Positions 4,257 through 27,504 of a stretch of DNA of 27,590 nt are shown one piece after another; positions within the stretch are counted from its first letter, which is position 1, and every line of letters starts with the position of its first letter. The notes under the pieces were generated by a model. It saw only the letters and a program-made list of their open reading frames with translations. It made no database searches and was not told where the DNA came from. The position numbers and the translations under genes were made by a program. Source of the stretch: a virus (taxonomy: Duplodnaviria; Heunggongvirae; Uroviricota; Caudoviricetes); IMG/VR virus record IMGVR_UViG_2551306525_000002, positions 1-27,590 of that record. One strand, 5' to 3'.

Positions 4257-4314
4257 CTGGCGCGGATCCAAAATGGTCACGCAACTGCATTAAACCCGAC
4301 CTATAAAGCGGGCA

Positions 4315-4497: not shown

Positions 4498-4502
4498 GAT
4501 GT

Positions 4503-7309: not shown

Positions 7310-7482
7310 GAATACCTCGCCGTGATGAATACACGGCAAGGCTACTGAGTCGCGCCCCGCGATTCGCTAAGGTGCTGTTGTGTCAGTGATAAGCCATCCG
7401 GGACTGATGGCGGAGGATGCGCATCGTCGGGAAACTGATGCCGACATGTGACTCCTCTAATCACTATTCAGGACTCCTGACA
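7310..7482. promoter_or_regulatory. Divergent P / O intergenic region, expected to hold the Ogr-dependent late promoters for the P-Q and O-N-M-L operons
   Basis: Position only, from the known P2 late-promoter arrangement. I could not find a clean TGT-N12-ACA element by eye. Confidence 0.4.
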
Positions 7483-8337
7483 ATGGCAAAAAAAGTCTCA
7501 AAATTCTTTCGTATCGGCGTTGAGGGTGACACCTGTGACGGGCGTGTCATCAGTGCGCAGGATATTCAGGAAATGGCTGAAACCTTTGACCCGCGAGTCT
7601 ATGGTTGCCGCATTAACCTGGAACATCTGCGCGGCATCCTGCCTGACGGTATTTTTAAGCGTTATGGCGATGTGGCCGAACTGAAGGCCGAAAAGATTGA
7701 CGATGATTCGGCGCTGAAAGGCAAATGGGCGCTGTTTGCGAAAATCACCCCGACCGATGACCTTATCGCGATGAACAAGGCCGCGCAGAAGGTCTATACC
7801 TCAATGGAAATTCAGCCGAACTTTGCCAATACCGGCAAATGTTATCTGGTAGGTCTGGCCGTCACCGATGACCCGTCAAGCCTCGGCACGGAATACCTGG
7901 AATTCTGCCGCACGGCAAAATACAACCCTCTGAACCGCTTCAAATTAAGCCCTGAAAACCTGATTTCAGTGGCAACGCCTGTTGAGCTGGAATTTGAAGA
8001 CCTGCCTGAAACCGTGTTCACCGCCCTGACCGAAAAGGTGAAGTCCATTTTTGGCCGCAAACAGGCCAGCGATGATGCCCGTCTGAATGACGTGCATGAA
8101 GCGGTGACCGCTGTTGCTGAACATGTGCAGGAAAAACTGAGCGCCACTGAGCAGCGCCTCGCTGAGATGGAAACCGCCTTTTCCGCACTTAAGCAGGAGG
8201 TGACTGACAGGGCGGATGAAACCAGCCAGGCATTCACCCGCCTGAAAAACAGCCTCGACCACACCGAAAGTCTGACCCAGCAGCGCCGCAGCAAGGCCAC
8301 CGGCGGTGGCGGTGACGCCCTGATGACGAACTGCTGA
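7483..8337 (+). CDS. O: Capsid scaffolding protein gpO (284 aa)
   Basis: ATG at 7483 (MAKKVSKFFRIG...) gives the P2 gpO length of 284 aa; the upstream extension from 7417 in the ORF track is rejected. Confidence 0.88.
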   Translation: MAKKVSKFFRIGVEGDTCDGRVISAQDIQEMAETFDPRVYGCRINLEHLRGILPDGIFKRYGDVAELKAEKIDDDSALKGKWALFAKITPTDDLIAMNKAAQKVYTSMEIQPNFANTGKCYLVGLAVTDDPSSLGTEYLEFCRTAKYNPLNRFKLSPENLISVATPVELEFEDLPETVFTALTEKVKSIFGRKQASDDARLNDVHEAVTAVAEHVQEKLSATEQRLAEMETAFSALKQEVTDRADETSQAFTRLKNSLDHTESLTQQRRSKATGGGGDALMTNC

Positions 8338-8395
8338 CCGGCGTCAGTCAGTCCGGGAAAACCTTCACGATTAACCCTTAATTTCAGGAAAAACT

Positions 8396-9469
8396 ATGCG
8401 CCAGGAAACCCGCTTTAAATTTAATGCCTACCTGTCCCGTGTTGCCGAACTGAACGGCATCGACGCCGGTGATGTGTCGAAAAAATTCACCGTTGAACCG
8501 TCGGTCACCCAGACCCTGATGAACACCATGCAGGAGTCCTCTGATTTTCTGACCCGCATCAACATTGTGCCGGTCAGCGAAATGAAAGGGGAAAAAATTG
8601 GTATTGGTGTCACCGGCTCCATCGCCAGCACCACCGACACCGCCGGTGGCACCGAGCGTCAGCCGAAGGACTTCTCGAAGCTGGCGTCAAACAAGTACGA
8701 ATGCGACCAGATTAACTTCGATTTTTATATCCGCTACAAAACGCTTGACCTGTGGGCGCGTTATCAGGATTTCCAGCTTCGTATCCGTAACGCCATTATC
8801 AAACGCCAGTCCCTTGATTTCATCATGGCCGGTTTTAACGGTGTGAAGCGTGCCGAAACCTCTGACCGCAACAGTAATCCGATGTTGCAGGATGTGGCGG
8901 TCGGCTGGCTGCAGAAATACCGCAATGAAGCCCCGGCGCGCGTGATGAGCAAGGTCACTGACGAGGAAGGGCGCACCACCTCTGAGGTCATCCGCGTGGG
9001 CAAGGGCGGTGATTATGCCAGCCTCGATGCACTGGTAATGGATGCGACCAACAACCTGATTGAGCCGTGGTATCAGGAAGACCCTGACCTTGTGGTGATT
9101 GTGGGACGTCAGCTACTGGCGGACAAGTATTTTCCCATCGTCAACAAGGAGCAGGACAACAGCGAAATGCTGGCCGCTGACGTCATCATCAGCCAGAAAC
9201 GCATCGGCAACCTGCCAGCGGTACGCGTCCCGTACTTCCCGGCGGATGCGATGCTCATCACGAAGCTGGAAAACCTGTCCATCTACTACATGGATGACAG
9301 CCATCGCCGCGTGATTGAGGAAAACCCGAAACTCGACCGCGTGGAGAACTACGAGTCAATGAACATTGATTACGTGGTGGAGGACTACGCCGCCGGTTGT
9401 CTGGTGGAAAAAATTAAGGTCGGTGATTTCTCCACACCGGCTAAGGCGACCGCAGAGCCGGGAGCGTAA
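8396..9469 (+). CDS. N: Major capsid protein gpN (357 aa)
   Basis: Length identical to P2 gpN; position after O. Confidence 0.9.
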   Translation: MRQETRFKFNAYLSRVAELNGIDAGDVSKKFTVEPSVTQTLMNTMQESSDFLTRINIVPVSEMKGEKIGIGVTGSIASTTDTAGGTERQPKDFSKLASNKYECDQINFDFYIRYKTLDLWARYQDFQLRIRNAIIKRQSLDFIMAGFNGVKRAETSDRNSNPMLQDVAVGWLQKYRNEAPARVMSKVTDEEGRTTSEVIRVGKGGDYASLDALVMDATNNLIEPWYQEDPDLVVIVGRQLLADKYFPIVNKEQDNSEMLAADVIISQKRIGNLPAVRVPYFPADAMLITKLENLSIYYMDDSHRRVIEENPKLDRVENYESMNIDYVVEDYAAGCLVEKIKVGDFSTPAKATAEPGA

Positions 9470-9472
9470 CCG

Positions 9473-10216
9473 ATGACGAGTCCCGCACAGCGCCACATGA
9501 TGCGGGTCTCGGCAGCGATAACCGCGCAGCGGGACGCCGCCCCGCTGCGACATGCAACTGTCTATGAGCAGATGCTGGTTAAGCTGGCCGCAGACCAGCG
9601 CACACTGAAAGCGATTTATTCAAAAGAGCTGAAGGCCGCAAAAAAACGCGAACTGCTGCCGTTCTGGTTGCCGTGGGTGAACGGCGTGCTGGAGCAGGGC
9701 AAAGGTGCACAGGATGACATTCTGATGACGGTCATGCTGTGGCGTCTGGATACCGGCGATATTGCCGGTGCGCTGGAGATTGCCCGTTATGCCCTGAAGT
9801 ACGGTCTGACCATGCCGGGTAAACACCGCCGTACCCCGCCGTACATGTTCACCGAGGAGGTGGCGCTTGCGGCCATGCGCGCTCACGCTGCCGGTGAGTC
9901 TGTGGATACCCGCCTGCTGACGGACACCCTTGAACTGACCGCCACGGCTGACATGCCTGATGAAGTGCGCGCAAAGCTGCACAAAATCACCGGTCTGTTT
10001 CTGCGTGACACCGGTGATGCCGCCGGTGCGCTGGCGCACCTGCAACGTGCGACACAGCTCGACTGTCAGGCAGGCGTCAAAAAAGAGATTGAACGACTGG
10101 AGCGGGAGCTGAAACCGAAGCCGGAGCCGCAGCCCAAAGCGGCCACCCGCGCCCCGCGTAAGACACGGAGCGTGACACCGGCAAAACGTGGACGCCCGAA
10201 AAAGAAAGCCAGTTAA
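9473..10216 (+). CDS. M: Terminase small (endonuclease) subunit gpM (247 aa)
   Basis: Length identical to P2 gpM; basic proline/lysine-rich C-terminal tail; follows N by 3 nt. Confidence 0.88.
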   Translation: MTSPAQRHMMRVSAAITAQRDAAPLRHATVYEQMLVKLAADQRTLKAIYSKELKAAKKRELLPFWLPWVNGVLEQGKGAQDDILMTVMLWRLDTGDIAGALEIARYALKYGLTMPGKHRRTPPYMFTEEVALAAMRAHAAGESVDTRLLTDTLELTATADMPDEVRAKLHKITGLFLRDTGDAAGALAHLQRATQLDCQAGVKKEIERLERELKPKPEPQPKAATRAPRKTRSVTPAKRGRPKKKAS

Positions 10217-10315
10217 CAACCGAATGCGCCCCGCGCCAGGGCGGCACGCCAGTCAGTGAGGGTGAATCACCTGACACTGCACCGGCGTCCACCGCCCGAC
10301 TTTTCAGAGGTAGTC

Positions 10316-10825
10316 ATGATGACGCTGATTATTCCGCGAAAGGAGGCTCCTGTATCCGGTGAGGGTACGGTGGTCATCCCGCAACCGGCAGGCGACGAGC
10401 CGGTGATTAAAAACACGTTCTTTTTTCCCGATATCGACCCGAAGCGCGTCCGGGAACGTATGCGCCTTGAGCAGACCGTCGCCCCCGCCCGTCTGCGTGA
10501 GGCCATCAAGTCAGGCATGGCGGAGACGAATGCGGAGCTGTACGAGTACCGCGAACAGAAAATTGCCGCCGGTTTTACGCGTCTGGCGGACGTCCCGGCG
10601 GACGACATCGACGGTGAAAGCATCAAAGTTTTTTACTACGAGCGCGCCGTGTGTGCGATGGCGACCGCGTCACTTTATGAACGTTATCGCGGTGTGGATG
10701 CCAGTGCGAAAGGCGACAAGAAGGCTGACAGCATTGACAGCACCATTGATGAACTGTGGCGGGATATGCGCTGGGCGGTGGCGCGTATCCAGGACAAGCC
10801 GCGCTGCATCGTGAGTCAAATCTGA
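10316..10825 (+). CDS. L: Head completion protein gpL (169 aa)
   Basis: ATG at 10316 (MMTLIIPRKEAP...) preceded by AGAGG gives the P2 gpL length of 169 aa; the longer ORF from 10256 is rejected. Confidence 0.88.
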   Translation: MMTLIIPRKEAPVSGEGTVVIPQPAGDEPVIKNTFFFPDIDPKRVRERMRLEQTVAPARLREAIKSGMAETNAELYEYREQKIAAGFTRLADVPADDIDGESIKVFYYERAVCAMATASLYERYRGVDASAKGDKKADSIDSTIDELWRDMRWAVARIQDKPRCIVSQI

Positions 10826-11028
10826 TGAAGACCTTTGCGCTACAGGGCGACACGCTCGACGCCATTTGTGTCCGGTATTACGGGCGCACTGAGGGCGTGG
10901 TTGAGACCGTGCTCGCCGCAAATCCGGGACTGGCTGAACTGGGTGCGGTGCTGCCGCACGGCACCGCCGTCGAACTGCCCGATGTTCAGACCGCGCCCGT
11001 GGCTGAAACTGTCAATCTGTGGGAGTAA
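10825..11028 (+). CDS. X: Tail protein gpX (67 aa)
   Basis: ATG overlaps the L stop (TGATG at 10823-10827). 67 aa (MKTFALQGDTLDAICVRYYG...) as in P2 gpX. Confidence 0.85.
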   Translation: MKTFALQGDTLDAICVRYYGRTEGVVETVLAANPGLAELGAVLPHGTAVELPDVQTAPVAETVNLWE

Positions 11029-11031
11029 CGC

Positions 11032-11313
11032 ATGACAGCAGAAGAAAAAAGCGTCCTGTCGCTTTTCATGATTGGGGTGCTGATTGTTGTAGGCAAAGTG
11101 CTTGCCGGTGGTGAACCCATCACCCCGCGTCTGTTTATCGGGCGCATGTTGCTCGGTGGTTTTGTCTCGATGGTTGCCGGTGTTGTTCTGGTGCAGTTTC
11201 CTGACCTGTCACTGCCTGCGGTGTGCGGCATCGGCTCCATGCTGGGTATCGCCGGTTATCAGGTGATTGAGATTGCCATTCAGCGCCGTTTTAAGGGCAG
11301 GGGGAAACCGTAA
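11032..11313 (+). CDS. Y: Holin gpY (93 aa)
   Basis: 93 aa with hydrophobic transmembrane segments and a charged C-terminus; first gene of the lysis cassette as in P2. Confidence 0.88.
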   Translation: MTAEEKSVLSLFMIGVLIVVGKVLAGGEPITPRLFIGRMLLGGFVSMVAGVVLVQFPDLSLPAVCGIGSMLGIAGYQVIEIAIQRRFKGRGKP

Positions 11314-11810
11314 TGCCGGTAATTAACACGCATCAGAATATCGCGGCCTTTCTCGACATGCTGGCAGTGTCCGAAGGGACGGCGAATCATCCGCTGACGA
11401 AAAACCGGGGCTATGACGTGATAGTCACCGGACTGGACGGGAAGCCGGAAATTTTCACCGACTACAGTGACCACCCGTTCGCGCATGGCCGACCGGCGAA
11501 GGTGTTTAACCGTCGCGGTGAAAAATCAACGGCCTCCGGTCGCTATCAGCAGCTTTACCTGTTCTGGCCGCATTACCGCAAACAGCTTGCCCTGGCGGAT
11601 TTCAGTCCGTTGTCACAGGACAGACTCGCCATTCAGTTGATCCGCGAACGCGGTGCACTGGATGACATCCGGGCGGGACGCATTGAGCGCGCCATTTCAC
11701 GCTGTCGCAATATCTGGGCGTCCCTGCCGGGTGCCGGTTACGGTCAGCGTGAGCATTCACTGGAAAAACTGGTCACCGTCTGGCGTACCGCCGGCGGCGT
11801 ACCGGCTTAA
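11313..11810 (+). CDS. K: Endolysin gpK (165 aa, lysozyme-like)
   Basis: Start overlaps the Y stop (TAATG). Length identical to P2 gpK; position after the holin. Confidence 0.88.
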   Translation: MPVINTHQNIAAFLDMLAVSEGTANHPLTKNRGYDVIVTGLDGKPEIFTDYSDHPFAHGRPAKVFNRRGEKSTASGRYQQLYLFWPHYRKQLALADFSPLSQDRLAIQLIRERGALDDIRAGRIERAISRCRNIWASLPGAGYGQREHSLEKLVTVWRTAGGVPA

Positions 11811-11824
11811 ACGGAGTAAACACC

Positions 11825-12250
11825 ATGAAGAAATTATCCCTTTCACTGATGCTGAACGTGTCGCTGGCGCTGATGCTGGCACTGTCCCTGATTTACCCGC
11901 AGAGCGTGGCCGTCAGTTTTGTCGCCGCCTGGGCGATTCTGGTGACGGTTATCTGTGTGGTTGCCGGTGGTGTCGGCGTGTATGCCACTGAGTATGTGCT
12001 GGAACGCTACGGGCGGGAGCTGCCGCCGGAATCGCTGGCCGTGAAGATTGTCACGGCGCTGTTTTTGCAGCCGGTGCCGTGGCGCAGGCGGTCAGTGGCT
12101 CTGGTAGTGATGGTGGCGACGTTTATCTCGCTGGTCGCTGCCGGGTGGATTTTTACTGCGCTGATTTATCTTGTGGCGTCGCTGTTTTTCCGGCTGATAC
12201 GTACGGCCTGCCGTCAGCGTTTTGAGGGGCGGGAACCATGTCAAAGCTGA
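11825..12250 (+). CDS. lysA: Lysis accessory membrane protein LysA (141 aa)
   Basis: 141 aa, multiple hydrophobic helices, position after K as in P2. Confidence 0.82.
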   Translation: MKKLSLSLMLNVSLALMLALSLIYPQSVAVSFVAAWAILVTVICVVAGGVGVYATEYVLERYGRELPPESLAVKIVTALFLQPVPWRRRSVALVVMVATFISLVAAGWIFTALIYLVASLFFRLIRTACRQRFEGREPCQS

Positions 12251-12663
12251 TGACTGTGCTGGTTGTGTTGTTATCACTGGCGGTGGCCGGTCTGTTTCTG
12301 GTGAAACATAAAAATGCCAGCCTGCGCGCCTCGCTGGACAGGGCGAACAACGTCGCCAGTGAACAGCAGACGACCATCACCATGCTGAAAAATCAGCTTC
12401 ATGTTGCGCTCACCAGGGCAGACAAAAACGAGCTGGCGCAGGTGGCTCTGCGTCAGGAACTGGAGAACGCCGCGAAGCGTGAAGCACAGCGCGAGAAAAC
12501 CATCACGAGATTACTCAATGAAAACGAAGATTTTCGCCGCTGGTACGGCGCTGACCTGCCTGATGTTGTGCGCCGGTTGCACCAGCGTCCGGCCTGCACC
12601 GACGCCAGTGATTGTCGCCAACGCCTGCCCGAAAGTGAGCCTTTGCCCGATGCCGGGCAGTGA
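12238..12663 (+). CDS. lysB: LysB, Rz-like inner-membrane spanin component (141 aa)
   Basis: 141 aa, N-terminal transmembrane segment then a coiled-coil-like charged region; overlaps the end of lysA. Confidence 0.82.
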   Translation: MSKLMTVLVVLLSLAVAGLFLVKHKNASLRASLDRANNVASEQQTTITMLKNQLHVALTRADKNELAQVALRQELENAAKREAQREKTITRLLNENEDFRRWYGADLPDVVRRLHQRPACTDASDCRQRLPESEPLPDAGQ

Positions 12664-12808
12664 CCCGCAGACGAACGGCGATTTAAGTGCTGATATCCGG
12701 CAGCTTGAGAACGCGCTGGCACGCTGTGCCAGCCAGGTAAAAATGATTAAACACTGTCAGGACGAAAACGATGCTCAAACCCGACAGCCTGCGCAGGGCG
12801 CTGACTGA
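12518..12808 (+). CDS. lysC: LysC, Rz1-like outer-membrane lipoprotein spanin (96 aa), starting inside lysB in another frame
   Basis: ATG at 12518 opens MKTKIFAAGTALTCLMLCAGC, a signal peptide with a lipobox (LCAGC), followed by a proline-rich segment. 96 aa matches P2 LysC. Confidence 0.75.
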   Translation: MKTKIFAAGTALTCLMLCAGCTSVRPAPTPVIVANACPKVSLCPMPGSDPQTNGDLSADIRQLENALARCASQVKMIKHCQDENDAQTRQPAQGAD

Positions 12809-13238
12809 CGCCGTCACGGTGCTGAAAACCAGTCCCGAGATGCTGCGGATATTCGTGGATAACGGGAGTATTGCCTCCACACTGGCGACGTCTATGTCAT
12901 TCGAAAAGCGTTACACGCTCAATGTGATTGTGACCGACTTTACCGGTGATTTTGACCTGCTCATTGTGCCGGTGCTGGCGTGGCTGCGGGAAAATCAGCC
13001 CGACATCATGACCACCGACGAAGGCCAGAAAAAGGGCTTCACGTTTTATGCAGACATCAACAATGACAGCAGCTTTGATATCAGCATCAGCCTGATGCTG
13101 ACCGAGCGCACGCTGGTCAGTGAGGTGGACGGCGCGCTGCATGTGAAGAATATCCCGGAACCTCCGCCGCCGGAGCCGGTCACCCGCCCGGTGGAGCTTT
13201 ATATCAATGGCGAACTGGTGAGCAAGTGGGATGAATGA
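12771..13238 (+). CDS. R: Tail completion protein gpR (155 aa)
   Basis: Length identical to P2 gpR; position after the lysis cassette. Confidence 0.87.
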   Translation: MLKPDSLRRALTDAVTVLKTSPEMLRIFVDNGSIASTLATSMSFEKRYTLNVIVTDFTGDFDLLIVPVLAWLRENQPDIMTTDEGQKKGFTFYADINNDSSFDISISLMLTERTLVSEVDGALHVKNIPEPPPPEPVTRPVELYINGELVSKWDE

Positions 13239-13683
13239 GTTTAAGCGTTTTGAAGACCGGCTGACCGGACTGATTGAATCGCTGTCACCGTCAGGGCGTC
13301 GGCGACTGAGCGCCGAACTGGCGAAACGTCTGCGGCAGAGTCAGCAGCGTCGGGTGATGGCTCAGAAAGCCCCGGACGGCACACCCTACGCGCCACGCCA
13401 GCAGCAGAGCGCCAGAAAAAAGACCGGTCGCGTTAAGCGAAAAATGTTTGCGAAACTTATCACCAGTCGTTTTTTGCATATCCGCGCCAGCCCGGAACAG
13501 GCATCAATGGAGTTTTACGGCGGGAAGTCACCGAAAATCGCCAGTGTGCATCAGTTCGGTCTGTCGGAAGAAACCCGGAAAGACGGTAAGAAAATTGATT
13601 ATCCGGCGCGTCCTCTGCTCGGCTTTACCGGTGAGGATGTGCAGATGATTGAAGAGATTATCCTCGCTCACCTCGACCGTTAG
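13231..13683 (+). CDS. S: Tail completion protein gpS (150 aa)
   Basis: Length identical to P2 gpS; overlaps the end of R. Confidence 0.87.
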   Translation: MNEFKRFEDRLTGLIESLSPSGRRRLSAELAKRLRQSQQRRVMAQKAPDGTPYAPRQQQSARKKTGRVKRKMFAKLITSRFLHIRASPEQASMEFYGGKSPKIASVHQFGLSEETRKDGKKIDYPARPLLGFTGEDVQMIEEIILAHLDR

Positions 13684-13749
13684 TTGTGCCATTCCCGACA
13701 CCTCATCGTCACATTGCCGCCGGTATGACCCGGCGGCATCCTTCCCGTT

Positions 13750-14385
13750 ATGAACACTCTCGCAAATATTCAGGAACTCGCGCGCGCACTGCGCAACATG
13801 ATCCGCACCGGCCTTGTCGTCGAAACCGACCTTAACGCCGGTCGCTGCCGTGTGCAGACCGGCGGCATGTGCACCGACTGGCTTCAGTGGCTGACCCATC
13901 GCGCCGGTCGTTCGCGCACATGGTGGGCACCTTCCGTGGGGGAACAGGTGCTGATTCTGGCCGTGGGCGGTGAACTCGACACGGCGTTCGTTCTGCCGGG
14001 GATTTATTCCGGTGATAACCCTCCGCCGTCTGCGTCGGCAGATGCCATGCATATCCGTTTCCCTGACGGGGCGGTGATTGAGTATGAACCCGAAACCAGT
14101 GCACTCACGGTAAGCGGAATTAAAACGGCCAGCGTGACGGCTTCAGATTCTGTTACTGCCACGGTGCCGGTGGTCATGGTGAAAGCATCAACCCGCGTCA
14201 CCCTGGACACACCGGAGGTGGTCTGCACTAACAAGCTGATTACCGGCACGCTGGAAGTGCAGAAGGGCGGGACGATGCGCGGCAACATTGAACATACCGG
14301 CGGTGAACTCTCATCAAACGGTAAGGTACTGCATACCCATAAACACCCCGGCGACAGCGGCGGCACAACCGGGAGTCCTTTATGA
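13750..14385 (+). CDS. V: Baseplate spike protein gpV (211 aa)
   Basis: Length identical to P2 gpV; first gene of the V-W-J-I-H-G block. Confidence 0.88.
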   Translation: MNTLANIQELARALRNMIRTGLVVETDLNAGRCRVQTGGMCTDWLQWLTHRAGRSRTWWAPSVGEQVLILAVGGELDTAFVLPGIYSGDNPPPSASADAMHIRFPDGAVIEYEPETSALTVSGIKTASVTASDSVTATVPVVMVKASTRVTLDTPEVVCTNKLITGTLEVQKGGTMRGNIEHTGGELSSNGKVLHTHKHPGDSGGTTGSPL

Positions 14386-14729
14386 CAGCGCGTTATCTCG
14401 GAATGAATCGCAGTGATGGCCTGACTGTCACTGACCTTGAGCATATCAGCCAGAGTATCGGCGATATCCTGCGCACGCCGGTCGGCTCACGGGTGATGCG
14501 TCGTGATTACGGCTCGTTGCTGGCGTCAATGATTGACCAGCCGCAGACCCCGGCGCTTGAGTTGCAGATTAAGGTCGCCTGTTACATGGCGGTGCTGAAA
14601 TGGGAACCCCGCGTCACCCTGTCATCCGTCACCACTGAGCGCAGTTTTGACGGGCGAATGACGGTCACGTTAACCGGCCAGCACAACGACACCGGCCAGC
14701 CACTTTCGTTAACCATCCCTGTGAGTTGA
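14382..14729 (+). CDS. W: Baseplate wedge protein gpW (115 aa)
   Basis: Length identical to P2 gpW; start overlaps the V stop (ATGA). Confidence 0.88.
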   Translation: MTARYLGMNRSDGLTVTDLEHISQSIGDILRTPVGSRVMRRDYGSLLASMIDQPQTPALELQIKVACYMAVLKWEPRVTLSSVTTERSFDGRMTVTLTGQHNDTGQPLSLTIPVS

Positions 14730-14733
14730 AACC

Positions 14734-15641
14734 ATGCCGATTATCGACCTGAACCAGCTACCCGCACCGGATGTGGTCGAGGAGCTGGACTTTGAAACCA
14801 TTCTTGCCGAACGCAAGGCGACACTGATTTCCCTTTACCCGGAAGACCAGCAGGAGGCGGTCGCCCGTACCCTGACGCTGGAATCCGAACCTCTCGTCAA
14901 ACTGCTGGAGGAAAATGCTTATCGTGAGCTTATCTGGCGTCAGCGTGTGAATGAGGCCGCACGGGCGGTGATGCTGGCCTGTGCTGCCGGTAATGACCTT
15001 GATGTGATTGGTGCCAATTACAACACCACGCGCCTGATATCACCCCGGCAGATGATTCGACCATCCCGCCGACACCGGCAGTGATGGAATCTGACACGGA
15101 TTATCGTCTGCGTATTCAGCAGGCGTTTGAAGGTTTAAGCGTCGCCGGGTCGGTGGGGGCCTATCAGTATCATGGTCGCAGTGCCGACGGGCGTGTCGCG
15201 GATATTTCTGTAACCAGTCCGTCTCCGGCCTGCGTCACCATCTCTGTGCTGTCACGTGAAAATAACGGTGTGGCATCCGAAGACCTGCTGGCCGTGGTGC
15301 GTAACGCCCTTAATGGCGAGGACGTCAGGCCGGTGGCCGACCGCGTGACCGTGCAGTCTGCCGACATCGTTGAATACCAGATAAACGCCACGCTGTATCT
15401 TTACCCTGGTCCCGAAAGCGAACCCATTCGCGCTGCCGCCGTGAAAAAACTGGAAGCGTATATCACGGCACAGCACCGGCTGGGGCGCGACATCCGTCTG
15501 TCTGCCATTTATGCCGCTTTGCATGTGGAAGGCGTGCAGCGTGTCGAACTGGCTGCACCGCTGGCCGACATCGTGCTCAACAATACGCAGGCGTCTTTCT
15601 GTACCGAATACAGCGTCGTGACCGGAGGCTCGGATGAGTGA
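14734..15641 (+). pseudogene. J: Baseplate protein gpJ, interrupted by a 1-bp deletion frameshift near 15037-15038 (ORFs of 116 and 186 aa that together give the 302-aa gpJ)
   Basis: The first ORF ends TRLISPRQMIRPSRRHRQ* in frame 1. Frame 0 is open through the same bases and reads ...ITPADDSTIPPTPAVMESDTDYR, continuous with the second ORF. 116 + 186 = 302 aa, the P2 gpJ length. Confidence 0.8.
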
Positions 15642-16258
15642 TTCGCGACTGCTGCCGACCGGCTCATCACCGCTTGAAGTCGCCGCCGCAAAAGCCTGTG
15701 CGGAAATTGAAAAAACGCCGGTCAGTATTCGTGAGCTGTGGAACCCGGACACCTGCCCGGCAAATCTGCTGCCGTGGCTGGCGTGGTTGGCGGGACGTCG
15801 GCCGGTGGCCGACCGCGTGACCGTGCAGTCTGCCGCCATCGTTGAATACCAGATAAACGCCACGCTTTACCTTTACCCTGGTCCCGAAAGCGAACCCATC
15901 CGCGCTGCCGCTGTGAAAAAGCTGGAAGCGTATATCACGGCACAGCACCGGCTGGGGCGCGACATCCGTCTGTCTGCCATTTATGCCGCTTTGCATGTGG
16001 AAGGCGTGCAGCGTGTCGAACTGGCTGCACCACTGGCTGACATCGTGCTCAACAGTACGCAGGCGTCTTTCTGTACCGAATACCGCGTCGTGACCGGAGG
16101 CTCGGATGAGTGATTCGCGCCTGCTGCCGACCGGCTCATCACCGCTTGAAGTTGCCGCCGCAAAAGCCTGTGCGGAAATTGAAAAAACGCCGGTCAGGAT
16201 TCGTGAGCTGTGGAACCCGGACACCTGCCCGGCAAATCTGCTGCCGTGGCTGGCGTGG
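15321..16258 (+). repeat. Tandem direct duplication, two copies of ~472 bp at ~97% identity, spanning the 3' part of J and the 5' part of I
   Basis: Copy 1 ~15321-15786, copy 2 ~15794-16258, constant offset 472 bp, with about a dozen substitutions between copies. The junction at ~15781-15800 falls at short TGGCG microhomology and carries small indels. Confidence 0.85.
15634..16113 (+). CDS. Chimeric ORF (159 aa) created by the duplication: first ~51 residues of gpI fused to the C-terminal ~108 residues of gpJ
   Basis: N-terminus MSDSRLLPTGSSPLEVAAAKACAEIEKTPV...LPWLAW matches the I start at 16106; the remainder, PVADRVTVQSAAIVEYQ...VVTGGSDE, matches the gpJ C-terminus. Expression unknown. 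Confidence 0.5.
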   Translation: MSDSRLLPTGSSPLEVAAAKACAEIEKTPVSIRELWNPDTCPANLLPWLAWLAGRRPVADRVTVQSAAIVEYQINATLYLYPGPESEPIRAAAVKKLEAYITAQHRLGRDIRLSAIYAALHVEGVQRVELAAPLADIVLNSTQASFCTEYRVVTGGSDE

Positions 16259-16636
16259 GCGTTTTCGGTCGACAGGTGGGATGAAAAGTGGCCGGAAGCG
16301 ACAAAACGCGCCGTTATCCGCGATGCCTATTTCATCCACTGTCATAAAGGCACTATCGGCGCAATCCGGCGTGTGGTGGAGCCGCTCGGCTATCTCATCA
16401 ACGTGACGGAGTGGTGGGAAAACAGTGACCCGCCCGGCACCTTCCGCCTTGATATTGGTGTACTGGAAAGCGGTATCACAGAGGCAATGTATCAGGAAAT
16501 GGAACGGCTGATTGCTGATGCCAAACCTGCAAGCCGTCACCTTATTGGTCTGAACATTACCCGGGACATTCCCGGCTACCTGTTCGCCGGTGGTGTGGCT
16601 TATGACGGCGATGTAATTACGGTTTACCCCGGATAA
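16106..16636 (+). CDS. I: Baseplate protein gpI (176 aa)
   Basis: Length identical to P2 gpI; start overlaps the upstream stop as at the first J/I junction. Confidence 0.87.
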   Translation: MSDSRLLPTGSSPLEVAAAKACAEIEKTPVRIRELWNPDTCPANLLPWLAWAFSVDRWDEKWPEATKRAVIRDAYFIHCHKGTIGAIRRVVEPLGYLINVTEWWENSDPPGTFRLDIGVLESGITEAMYQEMERLIADAKPASRHLIGLNITRDIPGYLFAGGVAYDGDVITVYPG

Positions 16637-16646
16637 GTGAGGAATA

Positions 16647-18869
16647 ATGAGCACAAAATTCAGAACCGTTATCACCACTGCTGGTGCAGCAAAGCTGGCA
16701 GCGGCAACCGCGCCGGGAGGGCGGAAGGTCAACATTACCACGATGGCCGTCGGGGATGGCGGTGGTAAATTGCCTGTCCCGGATGCCGGACAGACCGGGC
16801 TTATCCACGAAGTCTGGCGACATGCGCTGAACAAAATCAGCCAGGACAAACGAAACAGTAATTATATTATCGCAGAGCTGGTTATTCCGCCGGAGGTGGG
16901 CGGTTTCTGGATGCGTGAGCTTGGCCTGTACGATGATGCTGGAACGTTAATTGCCGTGGCGAACATGGCTGAAAGTTATAAGCCAGCTCTTGCCGAAGGC
17001 TCAGGGCGTTCGCAGACCTGCCGCATGGTCATCATCGTCAGCAGTGTGGCCTCAGTGGCGCTGACCATTGACACCACAACGGTGATGGCAACGCAGGATT
17101 ACGTTGATGACAAAATTGCAGAACATGAACAGTCACGACGTCACCCGGACGCCTCGCTGACCGCCAAAGGTTTTACTCAGTTAAGCAGTGCGACCAACAG
17201 CACGTCTGAAACACTCGCCGCAACACCAAAAGCGGTAAAAGCAGCATATGACCTTGCTAACGGGAAATACACTGCACAGGACGCCACCACAGCGCGAAAA
17301 GGCCTTGTCCAGCTCAGTAGTGCCACCAACAGCACGTCTGAAACGCTCGCCGCAACACCAAAAGCGGTAAAAGCAGCATATGACCTTGCTAACGGGAAAT
17401 ACACTGCACAGGACGCCACCACCGCGCGAAAAGGCCTTGTCCAGCTCAGTAGCGCCACCAACAGCGATTCTGAAACGCTTGCGGCAACGCCAAAGGCGGT
17501 TAAGACAGCGTATGACCTTGCTAACGGGAAATACACTGCACAGGATGCCACCACAGCGCGAAAAGGTCTTGTCCAGCTCAGTAGCGCCACCAACAGTGAT
17601 TCTGAAACGCTGGCTGCAACACCAAAAGCGGTGAAGTCTGCCTATGACAATGCTGAAAAACGTCTTCAGAAAGATCAGAACGGTGCGGATATTCCTGATA
17701 AAGGACGTTTCCTGAGTAACATTAATGTTTACAGCAAAGGTGAAGTGGATAAGAAAAAGGGAATGCGAAAGTATTCGTTTGCAGCCCCTGCAAATGTCGT
17801 TGCCGGGAAGTGGTATCCCGTTATCTTTCGCCGTGCTGCCAGCCTTTCAGGAGAAATGGCATCCCGCGTCGTTATTTCAACTGGTTGTTATAACGGCGAT
17901 TATGTAATGAATAACTGCGAGTTTAATGGCATGGTTATGCCCGGAGGCTGGACCGATCGTGGTTCATATGCGGCAGGTTATTTCTGGACGTATCAGACTA
18001 ATGAGCGTTCAATCCATTCCATTGTTACAAGCCTGAAAGATGATGATGTATGTAGTGTTTTTTATGTTGAAGCCAGAGCTTTCCCAGTACAAATTCTTGC
18101 AGAGGAAGGGCTAACGGTTATTGTTCCGACAGAGGATTATGTCGTCGGTCAGACGACATATAAGTGGGGGGCAACTAATCCCGCTACAGAAAGCACGAAC
18201 GTACAGGCTATTCTGGATTTTAAAAATGGACGTGGTTATTACTGTTCACATCCATTTATTTCCAGCCTTTCAGGAAATGCTGCAACAGCCTCAAAACTCG
18301 AAACACCGAGGAAAATAGCAGGTGTTGCCTTTGATGGTTCTGGAGATATTACCCTTAATGCCAGAAATGTCGGTGCATTTGCACTTCGGCAGACAGGTAA
18401 TACGGTTAATGGTGATACAGCCGTTGGATGGAATTGGGACAGTGGCGCATACAACGCTCTGATTGGGGGAGCATCTGCATTAATTCTTCACTTTAATATA
18501 AATGCTGGTAGCTGCCCGGCTGTACAGTTTCGTGTGAATTATAAAAATGGCGGTATATCTTACAGGTCAGCCCGTGATGGTTATGGTTTTGAATCTGGCT
18601 GGTCTGATTTCTATACCACAACACGAAAACCATCAGCGGGAGATGTTGGTGCATACACCAAAGCTGAATCAGATTCTCGCTATGTCCGGGATATTCGCCT
18701 GGGCACTCGTGTTGTTCAGACTATGCAGAAAGGGGTTATGTATGAGAAAGCAGGGCACGTAATTACAGGGCTTGGTATTGTCGGTGAAGTCGATGGTGAT
18801 GACCCCGCAGTATTCAGACCGATACAAAAATACATCAATGGCACATGGTATAACGTCGCACAGGTGTAA
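16647..18869 (+). CDS. H: Tail fibre protein gpH (740 aa) with internal tandem fibre repeats and a divergent C-terminal receptor-binding region
   Basis: N-terminus MSTKFRTVITTAGAAKLAAA... is P2 gpH-like. Longer than P2 gpH (669 aa as I recall) because of the repeat array. The C-terminal third has lower GC than the N-terminal part. Confidence 0.87.
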   Translation: MSTKFRTVITTAGAAKLAAATAPGGRKVNITTMAVGDGGGKLPVPDAGQTGLIHEVWRHALNKISQDKRNSNYIIAELVIPPEVGGFWMRELGLYDDAGTLIAVANMAESYKPALAEGSGRSQTCRMVIIVSSVASVALTIDTTTVMATQDYVDDKIAEHEQSRRHPDASLTAKGFTQLSSATNSTSETLAATPKAVKAAYDLANGKYTAQDATTARKGLVQLSSATNSTSETLAATPKAVKAAYDLANGKYTAQDATTARKGLVQLSSATNSDSETLAATPKAVKTAYDLANGKYTAQDATTARKGLVQLSSATNSDSETLAATPKAVKSAYDNAEKRLQKDQNGADIPDKGRFLSNINVYSKGEVDKKKGMRKYSFAAPANVVAGKWYPVIFRRAASLSGEMASRVVISTGCYNGDYVMNNCEFNGMVMPGGWTDRGSYAAGYFWTYQTNERSIHSIVTSLKDDDVCSVFYVEARAFPVQILAEEGLTVIVPTEDYVVGQTTYKWGATNPATESTNVQAILDFKNGRGYYCSHPFISSLSGNAATASKLETPRKIAGVAFDGSGDITLNARNVGAFALRQTGNTVNGDTAVGWNWDSGAYNALIGGASALILHFNINAGSCPAVQFRVNYKNGGISYRSARDGYGFESGWSDFYTTTRKPSAGDVGAYTKAESDSRYVRDIRLGTRVVQTMQKGVMYEKAGHVITGLGIVGEVDGDDPAVFRPIQKYINGTWYNVAQV
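17181..17648 (+). repeat. 3.5 tandem copies of a 132-bp (44-codon) unit inside H, encoding LSSATNSTSETLAATPKAVKAAYDLANGKYTAQDATTARKGLVQ
   Basis: Units start at 17181, 17313, 17445 and 17577 (the last partial), near-identical at nucleotide level. Corresponds to the short repeat common in phage tail fibres. Confidence 0.88.
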
Positions 18870-18872
18870 TTT

Positions 18873-19400
18873 ATGCAGCATTTAAAAAATATTACTGCGG
18901 GTAATCCAAAAACTGTTGCTCAATATCAACTGACAAAAAATTTTGATGTTATCTGGTTATGGTCCGAAGACGGAAAAAACTGGTATGAGGAAGTAAGTAA
19001 TTTTCAGGAAGACACGATAAAGATTGTTTACGACGAGAATAATATAATTGTCGGCATCACCAGAGATGCTTCAACGCTTAACCCTGAAGGTTTTAGCGTT
19101 GTCGAGGTTCCTGATATTACCGCCAACCGACGTGCTGATGACTCAGGTAAATGGATGTTTAAGGATGGTGCCGTGATTAAGCGGATTTATACGGCAGACG
19201 AACAGCAACAACAGACAGAATCACAAAAGGCCGCGTTACTTTCCGAAGCGGAAAGCGTTATTCAGCCACTGGAGCGCGCTGTCAGGCTGAACATGGCAAC
19301 AGATGAGGAGCATAGCCGACTGGAAGCATGGGAACGCTACAGTGTTCTGGTCAGCCGTGTGGATCCTGCAAATCCCGAATGGCCGAAAATGCCACAATAA
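18873..19400 (+). CDS. G: Tail fibre assembly chaperone gpG (175 aa)
   Basis: Length identical to P2 gpG; immediately follows H. Confidence 0.87.
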
Positions 19401-19461
19401 GTTGTATGAGCTCTGGTGTGAGCTTACATATCTATGGCACAGAGTAAAGCCTGATCTGACA

Positions 19462-19485
19462 GTCCGCTCTGTGCCAAGAGCGGAC
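19462..19485. repeat. Palindromic boundary motif, copy 1: GTCCGCTC-(8 nt)-GAGCGGAC
   Basis: Perfect 8-bp inverted repeat about 60 bp after the G stop; 20 of 24 positions match the copy at 21608-21631. Confidence 0.6.
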
Positions 19486-19756
19486 CTTAGGCTTCAGTAA
19501 TTTGGTTAGCACAACCCCTTTGATAAACATACAGCTACAGTATTGCTTTTATAAGGAGCGTAGTTTCAATAGGACACCCCAAACGTTAGTCGGGAAAAGC
19601 CGACTGAAAAAAACTTGTGTGGACAAGTAGTGTCCATTTAATGCCATTTTTAGATTAAAATGTGCCATTTTGAGGGTATTCTTAAACGTGCATAACGTTC
19701 TGATTTATCATACACAGAGCCTTATCATTTGAAACCATTCCGATGTACATCAAACA

Positions 19757-21292
19757 ATGATTACAAGAGAAATTATGACACCGCCAACCAAAATTGATAC
19801 ATCAAGTCTACTTACCATATTGGGCGTTATTGCTGCTGTATGGGCCCTTATTACGCCAAACGCTCGACTACGTTTAAGGTTCTGCCTAGCGTGGTGGGAT
19901 TGGGTAATTGTTGGGTTTGCATTCTTACTAAGCAATTATTTGGTGTTTGCACCGGCTTTAAAATCACTAGACTTATATTTTAGCTTTGGCCCCTGGAAAT
20001 GGGGATTAGATAGTTCAAGTGCCGTATACCTGATATCACTCGCAGTTGCTATTTACATTTTATTTCGCTTAAAAAACCCTAAACTCTCAATTGGAAGAAC
20101 AGGGATATTTCTAGAGTTAGTGGAAAATTTGCACCTTACTAAACGATACGACGATCTGGCACAATTGTTGGCACCTCAACTAGAAAAATTAATATCAATA
20201 ATTGATAGACCTGTGAAGAATCGACTTTGTGATAAGATAGCTAACAATCTCCGCATCTCTAATCGCGAGACAGCTGCTGAACATGCACATGAAGCATTGT
20301 TAAATATTGTCTCATCACCTGAACTTACCAATCACTTTGCACTTGCGCACCCATCCCTCTGCCTTGAGTTAATCAAGATCGAGCCAATAGTTCGTTCTGA
20401 CTTTACTTCTAATTTTATCAGTGCATTACTTGGTTCACCTAACAGTCGTCTATATGTTGAGCTTAAAAATAATCTTAACGTTAGTCGAGGACATCGTTTA
20501 TTGATTCCAAAAAACAACCGTATATTACATTTTTTCTTTTCCAATGCTAAGTTTGCAGCTGATTTAGCAATATACCGTGATATCGGTGACTATCTCTACT
20601 GGAGGTTAGATGAAGATGAAAAAATTATTGCTGCACTTAATAAGTCTTTAGGTTCCTATTACGATGCTTCAAAATATAAATGTCCTATTTACTCAGGTGT
20701 CACGCTGTTTGAAATTATGGTTCATGAAGGTATTCACCAGGGTCTTCAGGATCATTTATGGTTGCATTACTATTCATATTTCGCAAGGAAAATTATAAAG
20801 AATATGAATAGGCAATCAGATGAATATAGTGGTGAATGGGAAACACCTTTTCACTTCCTTCTCTGTCATTTATTTAGCGTCGCTACAGATTGGGCAGAAC
20901 AATGCGAATGGATAGATGAAAAGGAGATTCCTCAAGAAAATAAAGAAATAGATAATTTCGATCTTCATTATATTTCAAAAGAGGCTACCAAATTACTTGG
21001 TGCTATGCTGCAGTTGGTTATGCCTAATAAAAAACTCACCTTGAAATCTAGAAAGCATATTCTTGATATAGTTGTATCTTGTTATATTAGGTTGAAAAGG
21101 AATAAAAAATTAAAAGACGTCGCTGACTCATTATTAATTTTCACCACTAGAGGCGAAGGTAATTCAGCACCGCCGCATTATCGTAGAGAACTTCTAGAAA
21201 TATTCAATACCCTTGATGATTATCGATTAAGAACTGATGCCCCGGAATTCCGAGCAGCTATAGAGTCTGCTATTCAAGCAAGGCCGAATTAG
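19757..21292 (+). CDS. AT-rich cargo protein of unknown function (511 aa) with three predicted N-terminal transmembrane helices and a large soluble C-terminal domain; candidate defence/exclusion gene at the Z/fun locus
   Basis: Long ORF in a strongly AT-rich island between G and FI. Hydrophobic segments LLTILGVIAAVWALI, WWDWVIVGFAFLLSNYLVFAP and AVYLISLAVAIYILF. Start may be M7 (19775, purine-rich AAGAGAAA just upstream) rather than 19757. No family recognised. Confidence 0.75.
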   Translation: MITREIMTPPTKIDTSSLLTILGVIAAVWALITPNARLRLRFCLAWWDWVIVGFAFLLSNYLVFAPALKSLDLYFSFGPWKWGLDSSSAVYLISLAVAIYILFRLKNPKLSIGRTGIFLELVENLHLTKRYDDLAQLLAPQLEKLISIIDRPVKNRLCDKIANNLRISNRETAAEHAHEALLNIVSSPELTNHFALAHPSLCLELIKIEPIVRSDFTSNFISALLGSPNSRLYVELKNNLNVSRGHRLLIPKNNRILHFFFSNAKFAADLAIYRDIGDYLYWRLDEDEKIIAALNKSLGSYYDASKYKCPIYSGVTLFEIMVHEGIHQGLQDHLWLHYYSYFARKIIKNMNRQSDEYSGEWETPFHFLLCHLFSVATDWAEQCEWIDEKEIPQENKEIDNFDLHYISKEATKLLGAMLQLVMPNKKLTLKSRKHILDIVVSCYIRLKRNKKLKDVADSLLIFTTRGEGNSAPPHYRRELLEIFNTLDDYRLRTDAPEFRAAIESAIQARPN

Positions 21293-21299
21293 GTAAATC

Positions 21300-21322
21300 A
21301 ACCACCTGCATAGCGGGTGGTT
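21300..21322 (+). terminator. Weak putative terminator hairpin after the 511-aa gene (AACCACC-(9 nt)-GGTGGTT followed by a short T stretch)
   Basis: 7-bp perfect stem starting 8 nt after the stop codon; only 3 T residues follow. Confidence 0.35.
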
Positions 21323-21565
21323 TAGACATAGACCTCTAAGTATGCCTGAAAGCAGAGGTACCTCTAAGTTTCGATGTCTAGGTGTTGATCGGCTGTAATC
21401 TGGTAACCAGGTCAAGCTTAAAATTTTCTCAACATAAACAAGTAGTATTTCAAATATTGAACCATACTGACTCCCCCACTTTTTATAAGATTATGGAAAT
21501 TTTTTGTACCAGTAAGTTCGAAAATTAGTGTTGTTCTCATCAGTCGTTATGAAAAATTTTGAACT

Positions 21566-21587
21566 TCCGCTCCTCGCTCACAGCGGA
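21566..21587. repeat. Palindromic boundary motif, copy 2: TCCGCT-(10 nt)-AGCGGA
   Basis: Inverted repeat related to copies at 19462, 21608 and 22628 (CTCGCTCACAGCGGAC here versus CTCGCTCAAAGCAGAC at 22636). Confidence 0.55.
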
Positions 21588-21607
21588 CCCTCAACTCAGC
21601 CAGCAAT

Positions 21608-21631
21608 GTCCGCTGCTTGCCAGGAGCGGAC
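21608..21631. repeat. Palindromic boundary motif, copy 3: GTCCGCT-(10 nt)-AGCGGAC
   Basis: 20 of 24 positions identical to copy 1; lies between the convergent 511-aa and 250-aa cargo genes. Confidence 0.6.
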
Positions 21632-21667
21632 GTAGTTTAATCTCTACTATGTTAATAAGTAATGATA

Positions 21668-22420
21668 TTAAATAAACTCATCATTAAGAAAGCCTGTTGA
21701 TAAAAAGTTCTGAATGTGAAGATAAAAAGAATAACGTGTATCTTCATTTTTTTTCTTCGATGTGTTGAGTTCCGGCTTGAGATTGTAAATAAGATGAGAC
21801 TCTATAAAGTCAAGTAATTCTATAGCTAATGATGTCGGACTAATCCAATCCAGTGAAATATAGTCTTTTCCATCATAAAACCATGGGGTGGCTCTATATA
21901 TCCTCTTTTTCATATTATTATATTTGGGATCTAGCAACTTTAAGGCAGCCGAGTGACCGCCAATAAACCTTTTGGAGTTAACGGTTTTTCCGACATAAAC
22001 AATGTGTTCATTGGTATCATCCATATCAGAGCATGATATTAAATAGATTGGTAATGAGGGTTTGGGAGGAATGCCGATTTTTTTTTCGATTATCACCCTC
22101 TCCTTTTCATGAATAAAAATGGGAAGCTTTCCATTAAATTCACTCTTCACATTCCCCAAGAATGAATCTGTATTTTTCCTAGCTTCATGCAGTCCGACCC
22201 AGTTAAGACTATTGACCTGATGGAGAGGACAGCATTCCTGTATTGATAACCAAGCCTCCCAATCACTTGATGGATTATCACTACAGTTTTGGCCCGAAAA
22301 TCTGTGTGAAAGGAATTTTCTCCCCTCGAACCAGGCTTGCAACGGAATATATATGTCTGAAGTGTTCTGCTCGACTTCAATTAATGGACTGTTAGTATCC
22401 AAATTTATGCCTCCTTTCAT
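21668..22420 (-). CDS. AT-rich cargo protein (250 aa) with a C-terminal GIY-YIG-like nuclease signature; candidate exclusion/defence nuclease at the Z/fun position
   Basis: Minus-strand ORF just upstream of FI, where P2 carries Z/fun in the same orientation. Residues ~124-213 read PIY-(13 aa)-HIVYVGKTVNSKRFIGGH...AIELLDFIESHLIYN, resembling the GIY / YVGK / R / H / E / N pattern of GIY-YIG nucleases (compare the I-TevI and UvrC N-terminal motifs as I recall them). The N-terminal ~110 aa are unassigned. Confidence 0.7.
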   Translation of the reverse strand: MKGGINLDTNSPLIEVEQNTSDIYIPLQAWFEGRKFLSHRFSGQNCSDNPSSDWEAWLSIQECCPLHQVNSLNWVGLHEARKNTDSFLGNVKSEFNGKLPIFIHEKERVIIEKKIGIPPKPSLPIYLISCSDMDDTNEHIVYVGKTVNSKRFIGGHSAALKLLDPKYNNMKKRIYRATPWFYDGKDYISLDWISPTSLAIELLDFIESHLIYNLKPELNTSKKKNEDTRYSFYLHIQNFLSTGFLNDEFI

Positions 22421-22627
22421 TAAGTATTTGCATAAAAATATCTAAAAATAAGAAATTCTTTAATTAAGATTATAAGTTAAATATAAGTACCAATGAAGCT
22501 TTGAATGATTTCGCATCAATAAATTAATTCTAACACAATACCATATAATAACGAAAAATGTCACTACTTGGTCGTTGAGGATATGACATTGCAATTAAAG
22601 AGAAAACCTTAACACACTATCTATAAC

Positions 22628-22651
22628 GTCCGTTTCTCGCTCAAAGCAGAC
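22628..22651. repeat. Degenerate copy 4 of the boundary motif (GTCCGTTTCTCGCTCAAAGCAGAC); hairpin no longer perfect
   Basis: 19 of 24 positions identical to copy 2 when aligned; located in the upstream region of the 250-aa minus-strand gene. Confidence 0.45.
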
Positions 22652-22719
22652 TGTCAGATTTGATAGCATTTGGGCTATGTAAATTGTCAGGCGGAAAATG
22701 AGTGAGTACAAATCAGGAC

Positions 22720-22750
22720 AGGCGGGCGAATTGTCCGCCTTTTCTTTATC
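22720..22750 (+). terminator. Putative plus-strand intrinsic terminator about 95 bp upstream of FI
   Basis: 8-bp stem (AGGCGGGC / GTCCGCCT, one G-U pair), 5-nt loop, followed by TTTCTTTATC. Confidence 0.4.
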
Positions 22751-22844
22751 TGTTGTTTCATCCCCTGACCAGCCAGGACAAATAGCATCTCATGCCCTGC
22801 ACAACTGAAAATACCACTCACCCATTAACCACGGAGTTAAACGG

Positions 22845-24035: not shown

Positions 24036-24047
24036 GGAGCCTGACCG

Positions 24048-24566
24048 ATGGCAATGCCGCGCAAACTCAAGTTAATGAACGTCTTTCTGAACGGCTACAG
24101 CTATCAGGGCGTTGCAAAGTCCGTCACGCTACCAAAACTGACCCGTAAACTCGAAAACTATCGCGGTGCGGGGATGAACGGCAGCGCACCGGTAGACCTC
24201 GGCCTTGATGACGATGCGCTGTCAATGGAGTGGTCGCTCGGTGGCTTCCCGGATTCGGTTATCTGGGAGCTTTACGCCGCAACCGGTGTGGATGCCGTAC
24301 CGATTCGTTTTGCTGGCTCTTACCAGCGCGACGATACCGGCGAAACGGTGGCCGTCGAGGTGGTCATGCGTGGACGTCAGAAAGAAATCGACACCGGCGA
24401 GGGGAAACAGGGAGAAGACACTGAGTCGAAAATCTCCGTGGTCTGCACCTATTTCCGGCTGACGATGGACGGTAAGGAGCTGGTCGAAATCGACACCATT
24501 AACATGATTGAGAAGGTGAACGGCGTCGACCGGCTGGAGCAACACCGCCGAAATATCGGCCTGTGA
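24048..24566 (+). CDS. FII: Tail tube protein gpFII (172 aa)
   Basis: Length identical to P2 gpFII; follows FI. Confidence 0.9.
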   Translation: MAMPRKLKLMNVFLNGYSYQGVAKSVTLPKLTRKLENYRGAGMNGSAPVDLGLDDDALSMEWSLGGFPDSVIWELYAATGVDAVPIRFAGSYQRDDTGETVAVEVVMRGRQKEIDTGEGKQGEDTESKISVVCTYFRLTMDGKELVEIDTINMIEKVNGVDRLEQHRRNIGL

Positions 24567-24622
24567 TTTTCATCCGGTCAGCCAGGCTGACCGGTTAACC
24601 CTGATTCAGAAGTGAGAAAACC

Positions 24623-27490: not shown

Positions 27491-27504
27491 GGAGGTGACG
27501 AAAA

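Follow-up and report, generated by a model that had tools for sequence, protein, structure and literature searches.

The tail genes of the window (the whole stretch of DNA that was analysed, 27,590 nt) follow the order V-W-J-I and then H-G and encode the corresponding proteins of bacteriophage P2 (Peduovirus), with J-I DNA 97.2% identical to that of P2 itself. The assignment to a P2-like J-I module rests on Pfam (Baseplate_J followed by Tail_P2_I), on the gene order V-W-J-I-H-G and on DNA identities of 97–98%. J-I was present in 1,530 of 5,426 complete E. coli genomes, with 97–98% DNA identity, and the same level was found for P2, Wphi and P2_AC1. From position 3750 to 24385 the window is 100% identical to HE964769.1 (GCA_000308975.2), the record of the avian pathogenic E. 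coli strain IMT2125. Unlike P2 and all relatives examined, which have one J of 302 aa and one I of 176 aa, the IMT2125 record alone has an extra 472 bp and a missing T in this region. The features are compiled in Table 1.

Table 1. Features of the J-I region and of the two arms of the window (positions in the window)
Feature	Position	Strand	Description and basis
Left arm, lineage A	1-15787	+	gpA 3' part, cargo genes, Q, P, O, N, M, L, X, lysis genes, R, S, V, W, J, first 154 nt of I; lineage A documented for 3750-15787
Patch of six B-type alleles inside the A arm	13191-13311	+	G, C, C, G, C, C, the alleles of L010, L013 and L014
J 5' ORF (116 aa)	14734-15084	+	out of frame past the missing T; ORF list
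1-nt deletion frameshifting J (TT to T)	15038-15039	+	ATTATC to ATATC, compared with every relative examined
J 3' ORF (186 aa)	15081-15641	+	Baseplate_J; ORF list, Pfam
Repeat copy 1, A-type	15314-15786	+	J nt 582-909 and I nt 1-153
Chimeric I'-'J ORF (159 aa)	15634-16113	+	I residues 1-51, linker LAGRR, C-terminal ~100 aa of J
Junction	15787-15788	+	A-specific T (I nt 154) abuts lineage B J nt 582
Right arm, lineage B	15788-27590	+	'J, I, H, G, cargo genes, FI, FII, E, T, first 86 nt of U
Repeat copy 2, B-type	15788-16258	+	J nt 582-909 and I nt 1-153; two 1-nt A deletions, after 15792 and 15799
Intact I (176 aa), B-type, followed by H	16106-16636	+	0 substitutions compared with L024 and L042; Pfam

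The extra DNA is accounted for by a direct repeat of the 3' part of J and the 5' part of I. Tandem Repeats Finder reported an array at 15314–16258 with a period of 472, 2.0 copies and 96% matches; a repeat search of the window aligned 15328–15627 with 15800–16099 at 97% identity, in agreement with the pairwise alignment, and BLAST of copy 1 against copy 2 returned 473 columns with 13 mismatches and two one-nucleotide gaps (96.8% identity). The repeat is far above chance expectation. The first-pass annotation, made from the sequence alone, had described a tandem repeat of ~472 bp and ~97% identity across J/I, and had read the region as a frameshifted J, a 159-aa I'-'J chimera and an intact I; both descriptions are confirmed by these searches, by the ORF list and by Pfam, which finds in the 159-aa ORF Tail_P2_I positions 1–45 together with Baseplate_J positions 189–254 (the last 66). 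In both repeat copies the J stop overlaps the I start (ATGAGTGA). The two single-nucleotide deletions at the beginning of copy 2 bring the I' frame into the J frame; an in-frame fusion of this kind has odds of roughly 1 in 3 by accident.

The junction itself could be placed to the nucleotide. BLAST segments of the left-arm relatives stop at 15787 and those of the right-arm relatives start at 15788. With A for the lineage of the left arm and B for that of the right arm, I reads ...GGCTGGCGTGG/TCATTTT in lineage A and ...GGCTGGCGTGG/GCGTTTT in lineage B, the slash marking the end of the shared stretch, and the window reads ...GGCTGGCGTGG T/TGGCG-GGACGTC-GGCCGG, the slash here marking the junction. 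The T at 15787 is the first base at which A/B identity drops, from ~97% to ~82%. When 15787/15788 was compared with the A and B sequences, no microhomology was found and no bases are shared across the join. The junction at a TGGCG microhomology proposed earlier therefore has to be given up, as the left arm ends with T 15787 and the right arm starts at 15788 with J nt 582. The small indels mentioned in the same place do exist, and they can be specified as two single-A deletions, after 15792 and after 15799.

The change at the junction extends far beyond the repeat. Contigs of four other assemblies (L019–L022) match the window at 99.84–99.96% identity as far as 15787, where the match ends; compared with L019 and L020, the span 3750–15787 is 99.94% identical (6 mismatches, 1 gap). 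The A arm reaches only ~97.2–97.9% identity with lineage-B loci, and its best match in 5,426 complete E. coli genomes is at 97.8%, with no close relative there. The B arm shows 0 substitutions and three one-nucleotide gaps over 11.8 kb in comparison with the B contig of a sister strain, and 99.9% identity with CP025856. Counted against B-type loci that share the window's H protein, mismatches amount to 12–18 per 500 nt left of the junction and to 0–2 per 500 nt over ~6.7 kb right of it. The A-type alleles of J include C at 15293 and A at 15364, and the 3' part of the A-type I reads TCATTTTCGGTTGACCGC... Six sites at 13191–13311 are the only substitutions of the A arm (12 kb) relative to the A contigs of sister strains; all six carry B-type alleles, and over 13265–13424 the window and the sister B contig L042 do not differ.

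Within the repeat the same partition holds. Copy 1 has 0 mismatches to lineage A (0 in the final 745 nt of the A arm compared with L019), the two single-nucleotide deletions are the only differences between copy 2 and the sister B sequence, and the copies differ from each other at 13 sites, every one of which already distinguishes lineage A from lineage B. Because each copy matches its own lineage without mismatches, the 3% divergence between them is the pre-existing A/B difference, and no divergence has therefore followed the join. Two head-to-tail copies of one segment are present; copy 1 and the left flank are of lineage A, copy 2 and the right flank of lineage B, so that the copies and their flanks do not derive from one parental locus. 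The view that the divergence speaks against a recent simple duplication was correct, each copy being identical to a different P2-like lineage. As a side observation, an A/B SNP lies 21 nt before the start of the B arm and another 20 nt before the end of the window; an origin of these spacings in a k=21 graph was considered, and they are taken as coincidence.

Both lineages can be followed into other strains, where they occupy different places. In four draft relatives, lineage A is a deletion remnant of the structure Q...V-W-J-I' (about 430 nt)::'T-U-D-ogr, in which the stretch from H to most of T is missing, and it adjoins fieF-pfkA where the contig reaches host DNA (L019, L021). Lineage B is a full-length prophage adjoining pflB, in which a gene of 261 aa lies between S and V. 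In GCA_014714715.1 and GCA_024769075.1 A and B each lie on separate contigs, and in the former A (J-I'::'T-U-D-ogr) is found beside fieF-pfkA and B beside pflB. The sequences joined in IMT2125 are hence separate, normal loci in near-identical strains. IMT2125 differs from GCA_014714715.1 by 0 substitutions in the 11.8-kb B arm and in 8.9 kb of host flank, and on these sequence comparisons the two are near-clonal. From the gene order of the flanks and from the K-12 map, A and B would be in the same orientation at loci ~3 Mb apart. A comparison with the J-I junctions of related prophages, already advised by the first-pass annotation, gave the following result: J-I is single-copy in every A- or B-type relative examined (~20), J has 302 aa in all of them, and every B-type relative examined has a 176-aa I directly downstream of J.

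The frameshift in J deserves separate consideration. The T at 15038 is kept in L019–L022, the four lineage-A relatives that cover the position, and in all B-type loci, and the submitters' own J protein, CCJ43433.1, is an intact 302-aa A-type sequence. Judged from these sequences, the missing T is probably a base-calling dropout of the same kind as the B-arm deletions, rather than a mutation. The suggestion of a decaying or rearranged tail module thus finds no support as biology, the J frameshift being in all probability a single-base dropout that is absent from L019–L022.

The junction and its products were also sought outside the relatives. In the top-ranked J-I matches 1,432 bp were spanned in two pieces, as is expected of a single copy of the repeated segment, and a 121-nt query across the junction never gave a one-piece match in the 5,426 complete E. 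coli genomes. The junction was not found in the phage collection, and the exact junction was found neither in species-representative genomes nor in IMG/VR viral contigs; a relaxed, gapped junction pattern matched only seven unrelated high-GC genomes, by chance. On the protein side, neither the exact 159-aa chimera nor the frameshifted J 5' product was on record in an exact protein look-up, and none of the 120 protein matches listed was an I'-to-'J chimera. The few proteins combining Tail_P2_I with Baseplate_J_C were inspected as candidates for further chimeras, and all of them turned out to be J_C-to-I read-throughs in the natural gene order.

The state of the source record is of importance in this context. 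The IMT2125 genome is a non-closed assembly of 4,754,148 bp in 15 contigs with 32 gaps and only 8 rRNA genes (PMC4313913). In HE964769.1, runs of 100 Ns flank the window, on the left of position 1 in gene A (gpA) and on the right of 27590 in U. With a 100-N run at each end, the window is exactly one contig of the draft assembly, and from the N gaps in gpA and U it follows that the assembler had already broken twice inside this P2-like prophage; the source is unfinished, and its breaks lie in the same repeat element as the junction. A long A/B-identical stretch that would account for the contig end in U was not found, the differences there being scattered at ~3%. The record has no N run at 15787/15788, and the other joins in the region carry 100 Ns; the join must therefore have been made by something other than simple scaffolding. 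Separate intact B-type J proteins and A-type U or D proteins are apparently absent from the IMT2125 assembly; taken alone, the assembly therefore does not establish that the strain has the two prophages. A search with the I'::'T fusion protein of the sister strain did not return the exact protein among its matches, and the cluster of this protein falls on one contig only (IMT2125 is annotated differently).

The strongest point in favor of an artificial join comes from the errors next to it. The B arm has two single-nucleotide deletions, at nt 6 and nt 13–14 from its start, and then a single poly-T length difference in 11.8 kb. A contig that starts right after an N gap (L026 12649), compared with three sister assemblies, shows single-nucleotide deletions at nt 13 and nt 20 and then 8.9 kb free of differences. 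The whole clonal comparison of ~32.8 kb yielded six indels, each of them a deletion in IMT2125, and four lie no more than 21 nt from one or other of the two starts; substitutions were confined to the patch at 13191–13311. As the B-arm deletions match the pattern of a true contig start, position 15788 looks like a contig start as well, and the error pattern of a contig end is found at the join. The double deletion was seen at only one of the four N-flanked contig ends examined, both ends at the gpA gap and the right end of the window being clean.

Taken together, the tandem repeat is best explained as an assembly artefact in the unfinished IMT2125 pseudomolecule, to which we assign a probability of roughly 80%. 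As in its near-clonal relatives, two P2-like prophages of ~97% identity are probably present in IMT2125, and two copies this similar would cause an assembler to break within the prophage. Prophage A would be the deletion remnant beside fieF-pfkA, and prophage B the full-length element between pflA and pflB. The A-derived piece would end at I nt 154, exactly where the A/B similarity stops, which is a typical place for a contig break at a repeat boundary, and the B-derived piece would begin at J nt 582, such that the two ends overlap by 473 bp on the common map. With 13 differing sites in this overlap, the pieces would have been left unmerged and joined end to end without an N spacer, and an end-to-end join would produce both the apparent J3'-I5' duplication and the chimeric I'-'J ORF. 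On this view, two single bases close to the start of the B piece would have been lost through base-calling dropouts, not through mutation. Presumably a software or finishing step was the cause of the join. The position of the breakpoint agrees with such an origin, lying at a repeat boundary (A/B identity falling from ~97% to ~82%) with ends that overlap by 473 bp.

Artefacts of this type have a precedent. False segmental and tandem duplications arising from unmerged diverged alleles were reportedly described for heterozygous genomes by Kelley and Salzberg in Genome Biology in 2010. The IMT2125 repeat resembles them in that ~97% identical sequences of one map position are placed one after the other, that the copies differ only at sites which distinguish the sources and the flanks switch source at the join, and that true gaps, too, arose in the repeat region where the site is found. 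It differs from them in that the "alleles" are two prophages at different loci of a haploid genome, not haplotypes, and in that there is no N spacer. The first-pass annotation had left the choice between recombination and an assembly collapse of two alleles; an assembly origin is the better supported, and on that reading the alleles were placed end to end, not collapsed. Some observations sit less comfortably with an artefact: the left arm is almost purely A-type, with no mixture of A and B as in a consensus, the fusion ORF keeps the frame, and a real exchange between A and B could be the source of the B-type patch at 13191–13311.

On the other hand, it can be argued, as an unlikely alternative, that the hybrid is real and arose in IMT2125 by out-of-register recombination, either between two resident P2-like prophages or between a prophage and a relative that infected the strain. 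Illegitimate end-joining or template switching would have led from I nt 154 of A to J nt 582 of B, with error-prone synthesis leaving the two single-nucleotide deletions, and the outcome would be a prophage longer by 472 bp in which J is broken, I is intact and an in-frame I'-'J fusion retains the overlap of its stop with the I start. In its favor, the sequence runs through the junction uninterrupted by Ns; sister strains harbor both of the lineages from which the arms derive; the assembly shows one left arm and one right arm only; the 121-nt B-type patch in the A arm would fit gene conversion between A and B; and I' and J come into one frame through the two deletions. The same deletions, however, match the contig-start error pattern of the IMT2125 assembly. 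Between distant loci in the same orientation, as A and B appear to be, a reciprocal exchange would delete essential DNA and be lethal. The remaining route would be the exchange of at least 12 kb, and probably more, between the pfkA remnant and the pflB prophage by conversion or a break-induced event, with the right end resolved by non-homologous joining, so that the tandem repeat would have been born diverged. This requires a conversion of at least 12 kb (3750–15787) to end in a non-homologous join that is only 472 bp out of register; homologous repair would not yield such an offset join, and microhomology is absent at it. Mosaic P2-like prophages likewise change their closest relative abruptly along the genome, but homologous mosaics do so in register and without duplication; the join in IMT2125 is offset by 472 bp with no homology, and is not an in-register crossover inside shared homology. 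Furthermore, IMT2125 has 0 substitutions compared with a sister strain that lacks the rearrangement, and the junction occurs in no other collection searched.

Far less probable still is a heterogeneous source, in which an aberrant A/B recombinant, present in a subpopulation of the sequenced culture or in a phage genome that had excised or was replicating, was captured by the assembler. Such a source would reconcile the continuous contig with sister strains that lack the junction, but it needs the same unlikely out-of-register join, and prophage A, as a deletion remnant, is unlikely to replicate as a phage. An ordinary duplication of J3'-I5' in place within one prophage, with copies that later diverged to ~97%, would explain two adjacent copies with a period of 472, but it can be given practically no weight, since all 13 differences pre-exist between A and B with each copy matching its own lineage without mismatches, the flanking arms also switch lineage at the junction, and a divergence of 3% is impossible where the right arm has 0 substitutions compared with the sister strain; the A/B origin of the divergence between the copies refutes an old duplication in place.

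What the public IMT2125 record shows between pflA and pflB as one P2-like prophage is probably a hybrid of two different prophages that exists in silico only. If so, the left arm would belong to the remnant that sister strains have at pfkA, the record would lack the genuine left arm of the pflB prophage, and it would contain a spurious 472-bp repeat along with a spurious J frameshift. Prophage typing, pseudogene counts and recombination analyses that make use of the IMT2125 record would be misled.

Full-length J is required for the P2 baseplate. Should the junction nevertheless be real, J would be split: the frameshifted reading ends with the TGA at 15082–15084, which overlaps an in-frame GTG/ATG at 15081–15087, and a restart is conceivable. 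The I'-'J ORF would start at the normal start of I, overlapping the J stop, and would end at the J stop that overlaps the true I start, such that translational coupling into I would be kept. As the baseplate needs full-length J, a prophage of this kind would, by analogy with P2, probably be defective. The biological weight of the finding is small, for even a real junction would be a singular rearrangement, limited to the defective prophage of a single strain.

In the record of E. coli IMT2125, gpA has 513 instead of 763 amino acids, U is cut to 28 aa and D is absent, and each of these apparent losses coincides with a 100-N gap just outside the window; compared with relatives, the sequence missing at the two gaps amounts to about 1.26 and 0.97 kb, respectively. 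Prophage decay was rejected as their cause; the truncation of gpA, the truncation of U and the absence of D are assembly gaps.

The A-type arm carries, at the R/S boundary, a 121-nt patch (13191-13311) with six B-type alleles in surroundings that are otherwise A-type. Contigs of sister assemblies break at the same patch, the B-type contig L042 beginning at the equivalent of window position 13265 and the A-type contig L021 stopping at 13312. The patch arose by gene conversion between prophages A and B or else by path-switching of the assembler.

A search with the I'::'T fusion protein of the sister strains returned many proteins from E. coli and Salmonella (P0002-P0070), in which the last ≈ 216 residues of the tape-measure protein T are fused behind unrelated P2 proteins, namely capsid, gpL, sheath, holin, gpO, Cox, tail assembly chaperone and I. 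These proteins suggest the 3' part of T as a recurrent end point of deletion remnants of P2-like prophages; contig ends or annotation may instead account for some of the fusions.

Within the tail-fibre gene H lies an in-frame tandem repeat of a 132-bp (44-aa) unit, present in about 3-4 copies of 85-93% identity. H encodes 740 aa in the window versus 696 aa in near-clonal relatives, a difference of exactly one unit; the copy number of the repeat thus varies.

Features within the window and in related sequences
Feature	Sequence	Positions	Strand	Context
100-N gap	L026 (IMT2125)	12549-12648		just outside window
100-N gap	L030 (IMT2125)	13862-13961		just outside window
Tail-fibre gene H	window	16647-18869		tandem repeat at 17166-17650
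I'::'T fusion	L019 (A-type contig)	11886-12968
261-aa gene, uncharacterised	L042; L008/L009	491-1276; 6706-7491	-	between S and V, lineage-B relatives
Cargo gene, 511 aa	window	19757-21292	+	between G and FI
Cargo gene, 250 aa	window	21668-22420	-	between G and FI
Cargo gene, 540 aa	window	2239-3861	-	between A and Q
Cargo gene, 101 aa	window	1543-1848	+	between A and Q

Lineage-B relatives hold the 261-aa gene on the opposite strand in the S-V interval and the A-type arm of the window lacks it, which gives these P2-like prophages a third variable spot. The other two, the variable insertion spots of P2, are both occupied by cargo genes in the window, none of the four matching an entry in Pfam or PADLOC. 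Other P2-like relatives bear different cargo at the same spots, comprising a trypsin-like protease, an AAA_15/21 ATPase and a retron Ec48-type pair, and the cargo in the window may consist of accessory or defence genes not yet characterised.
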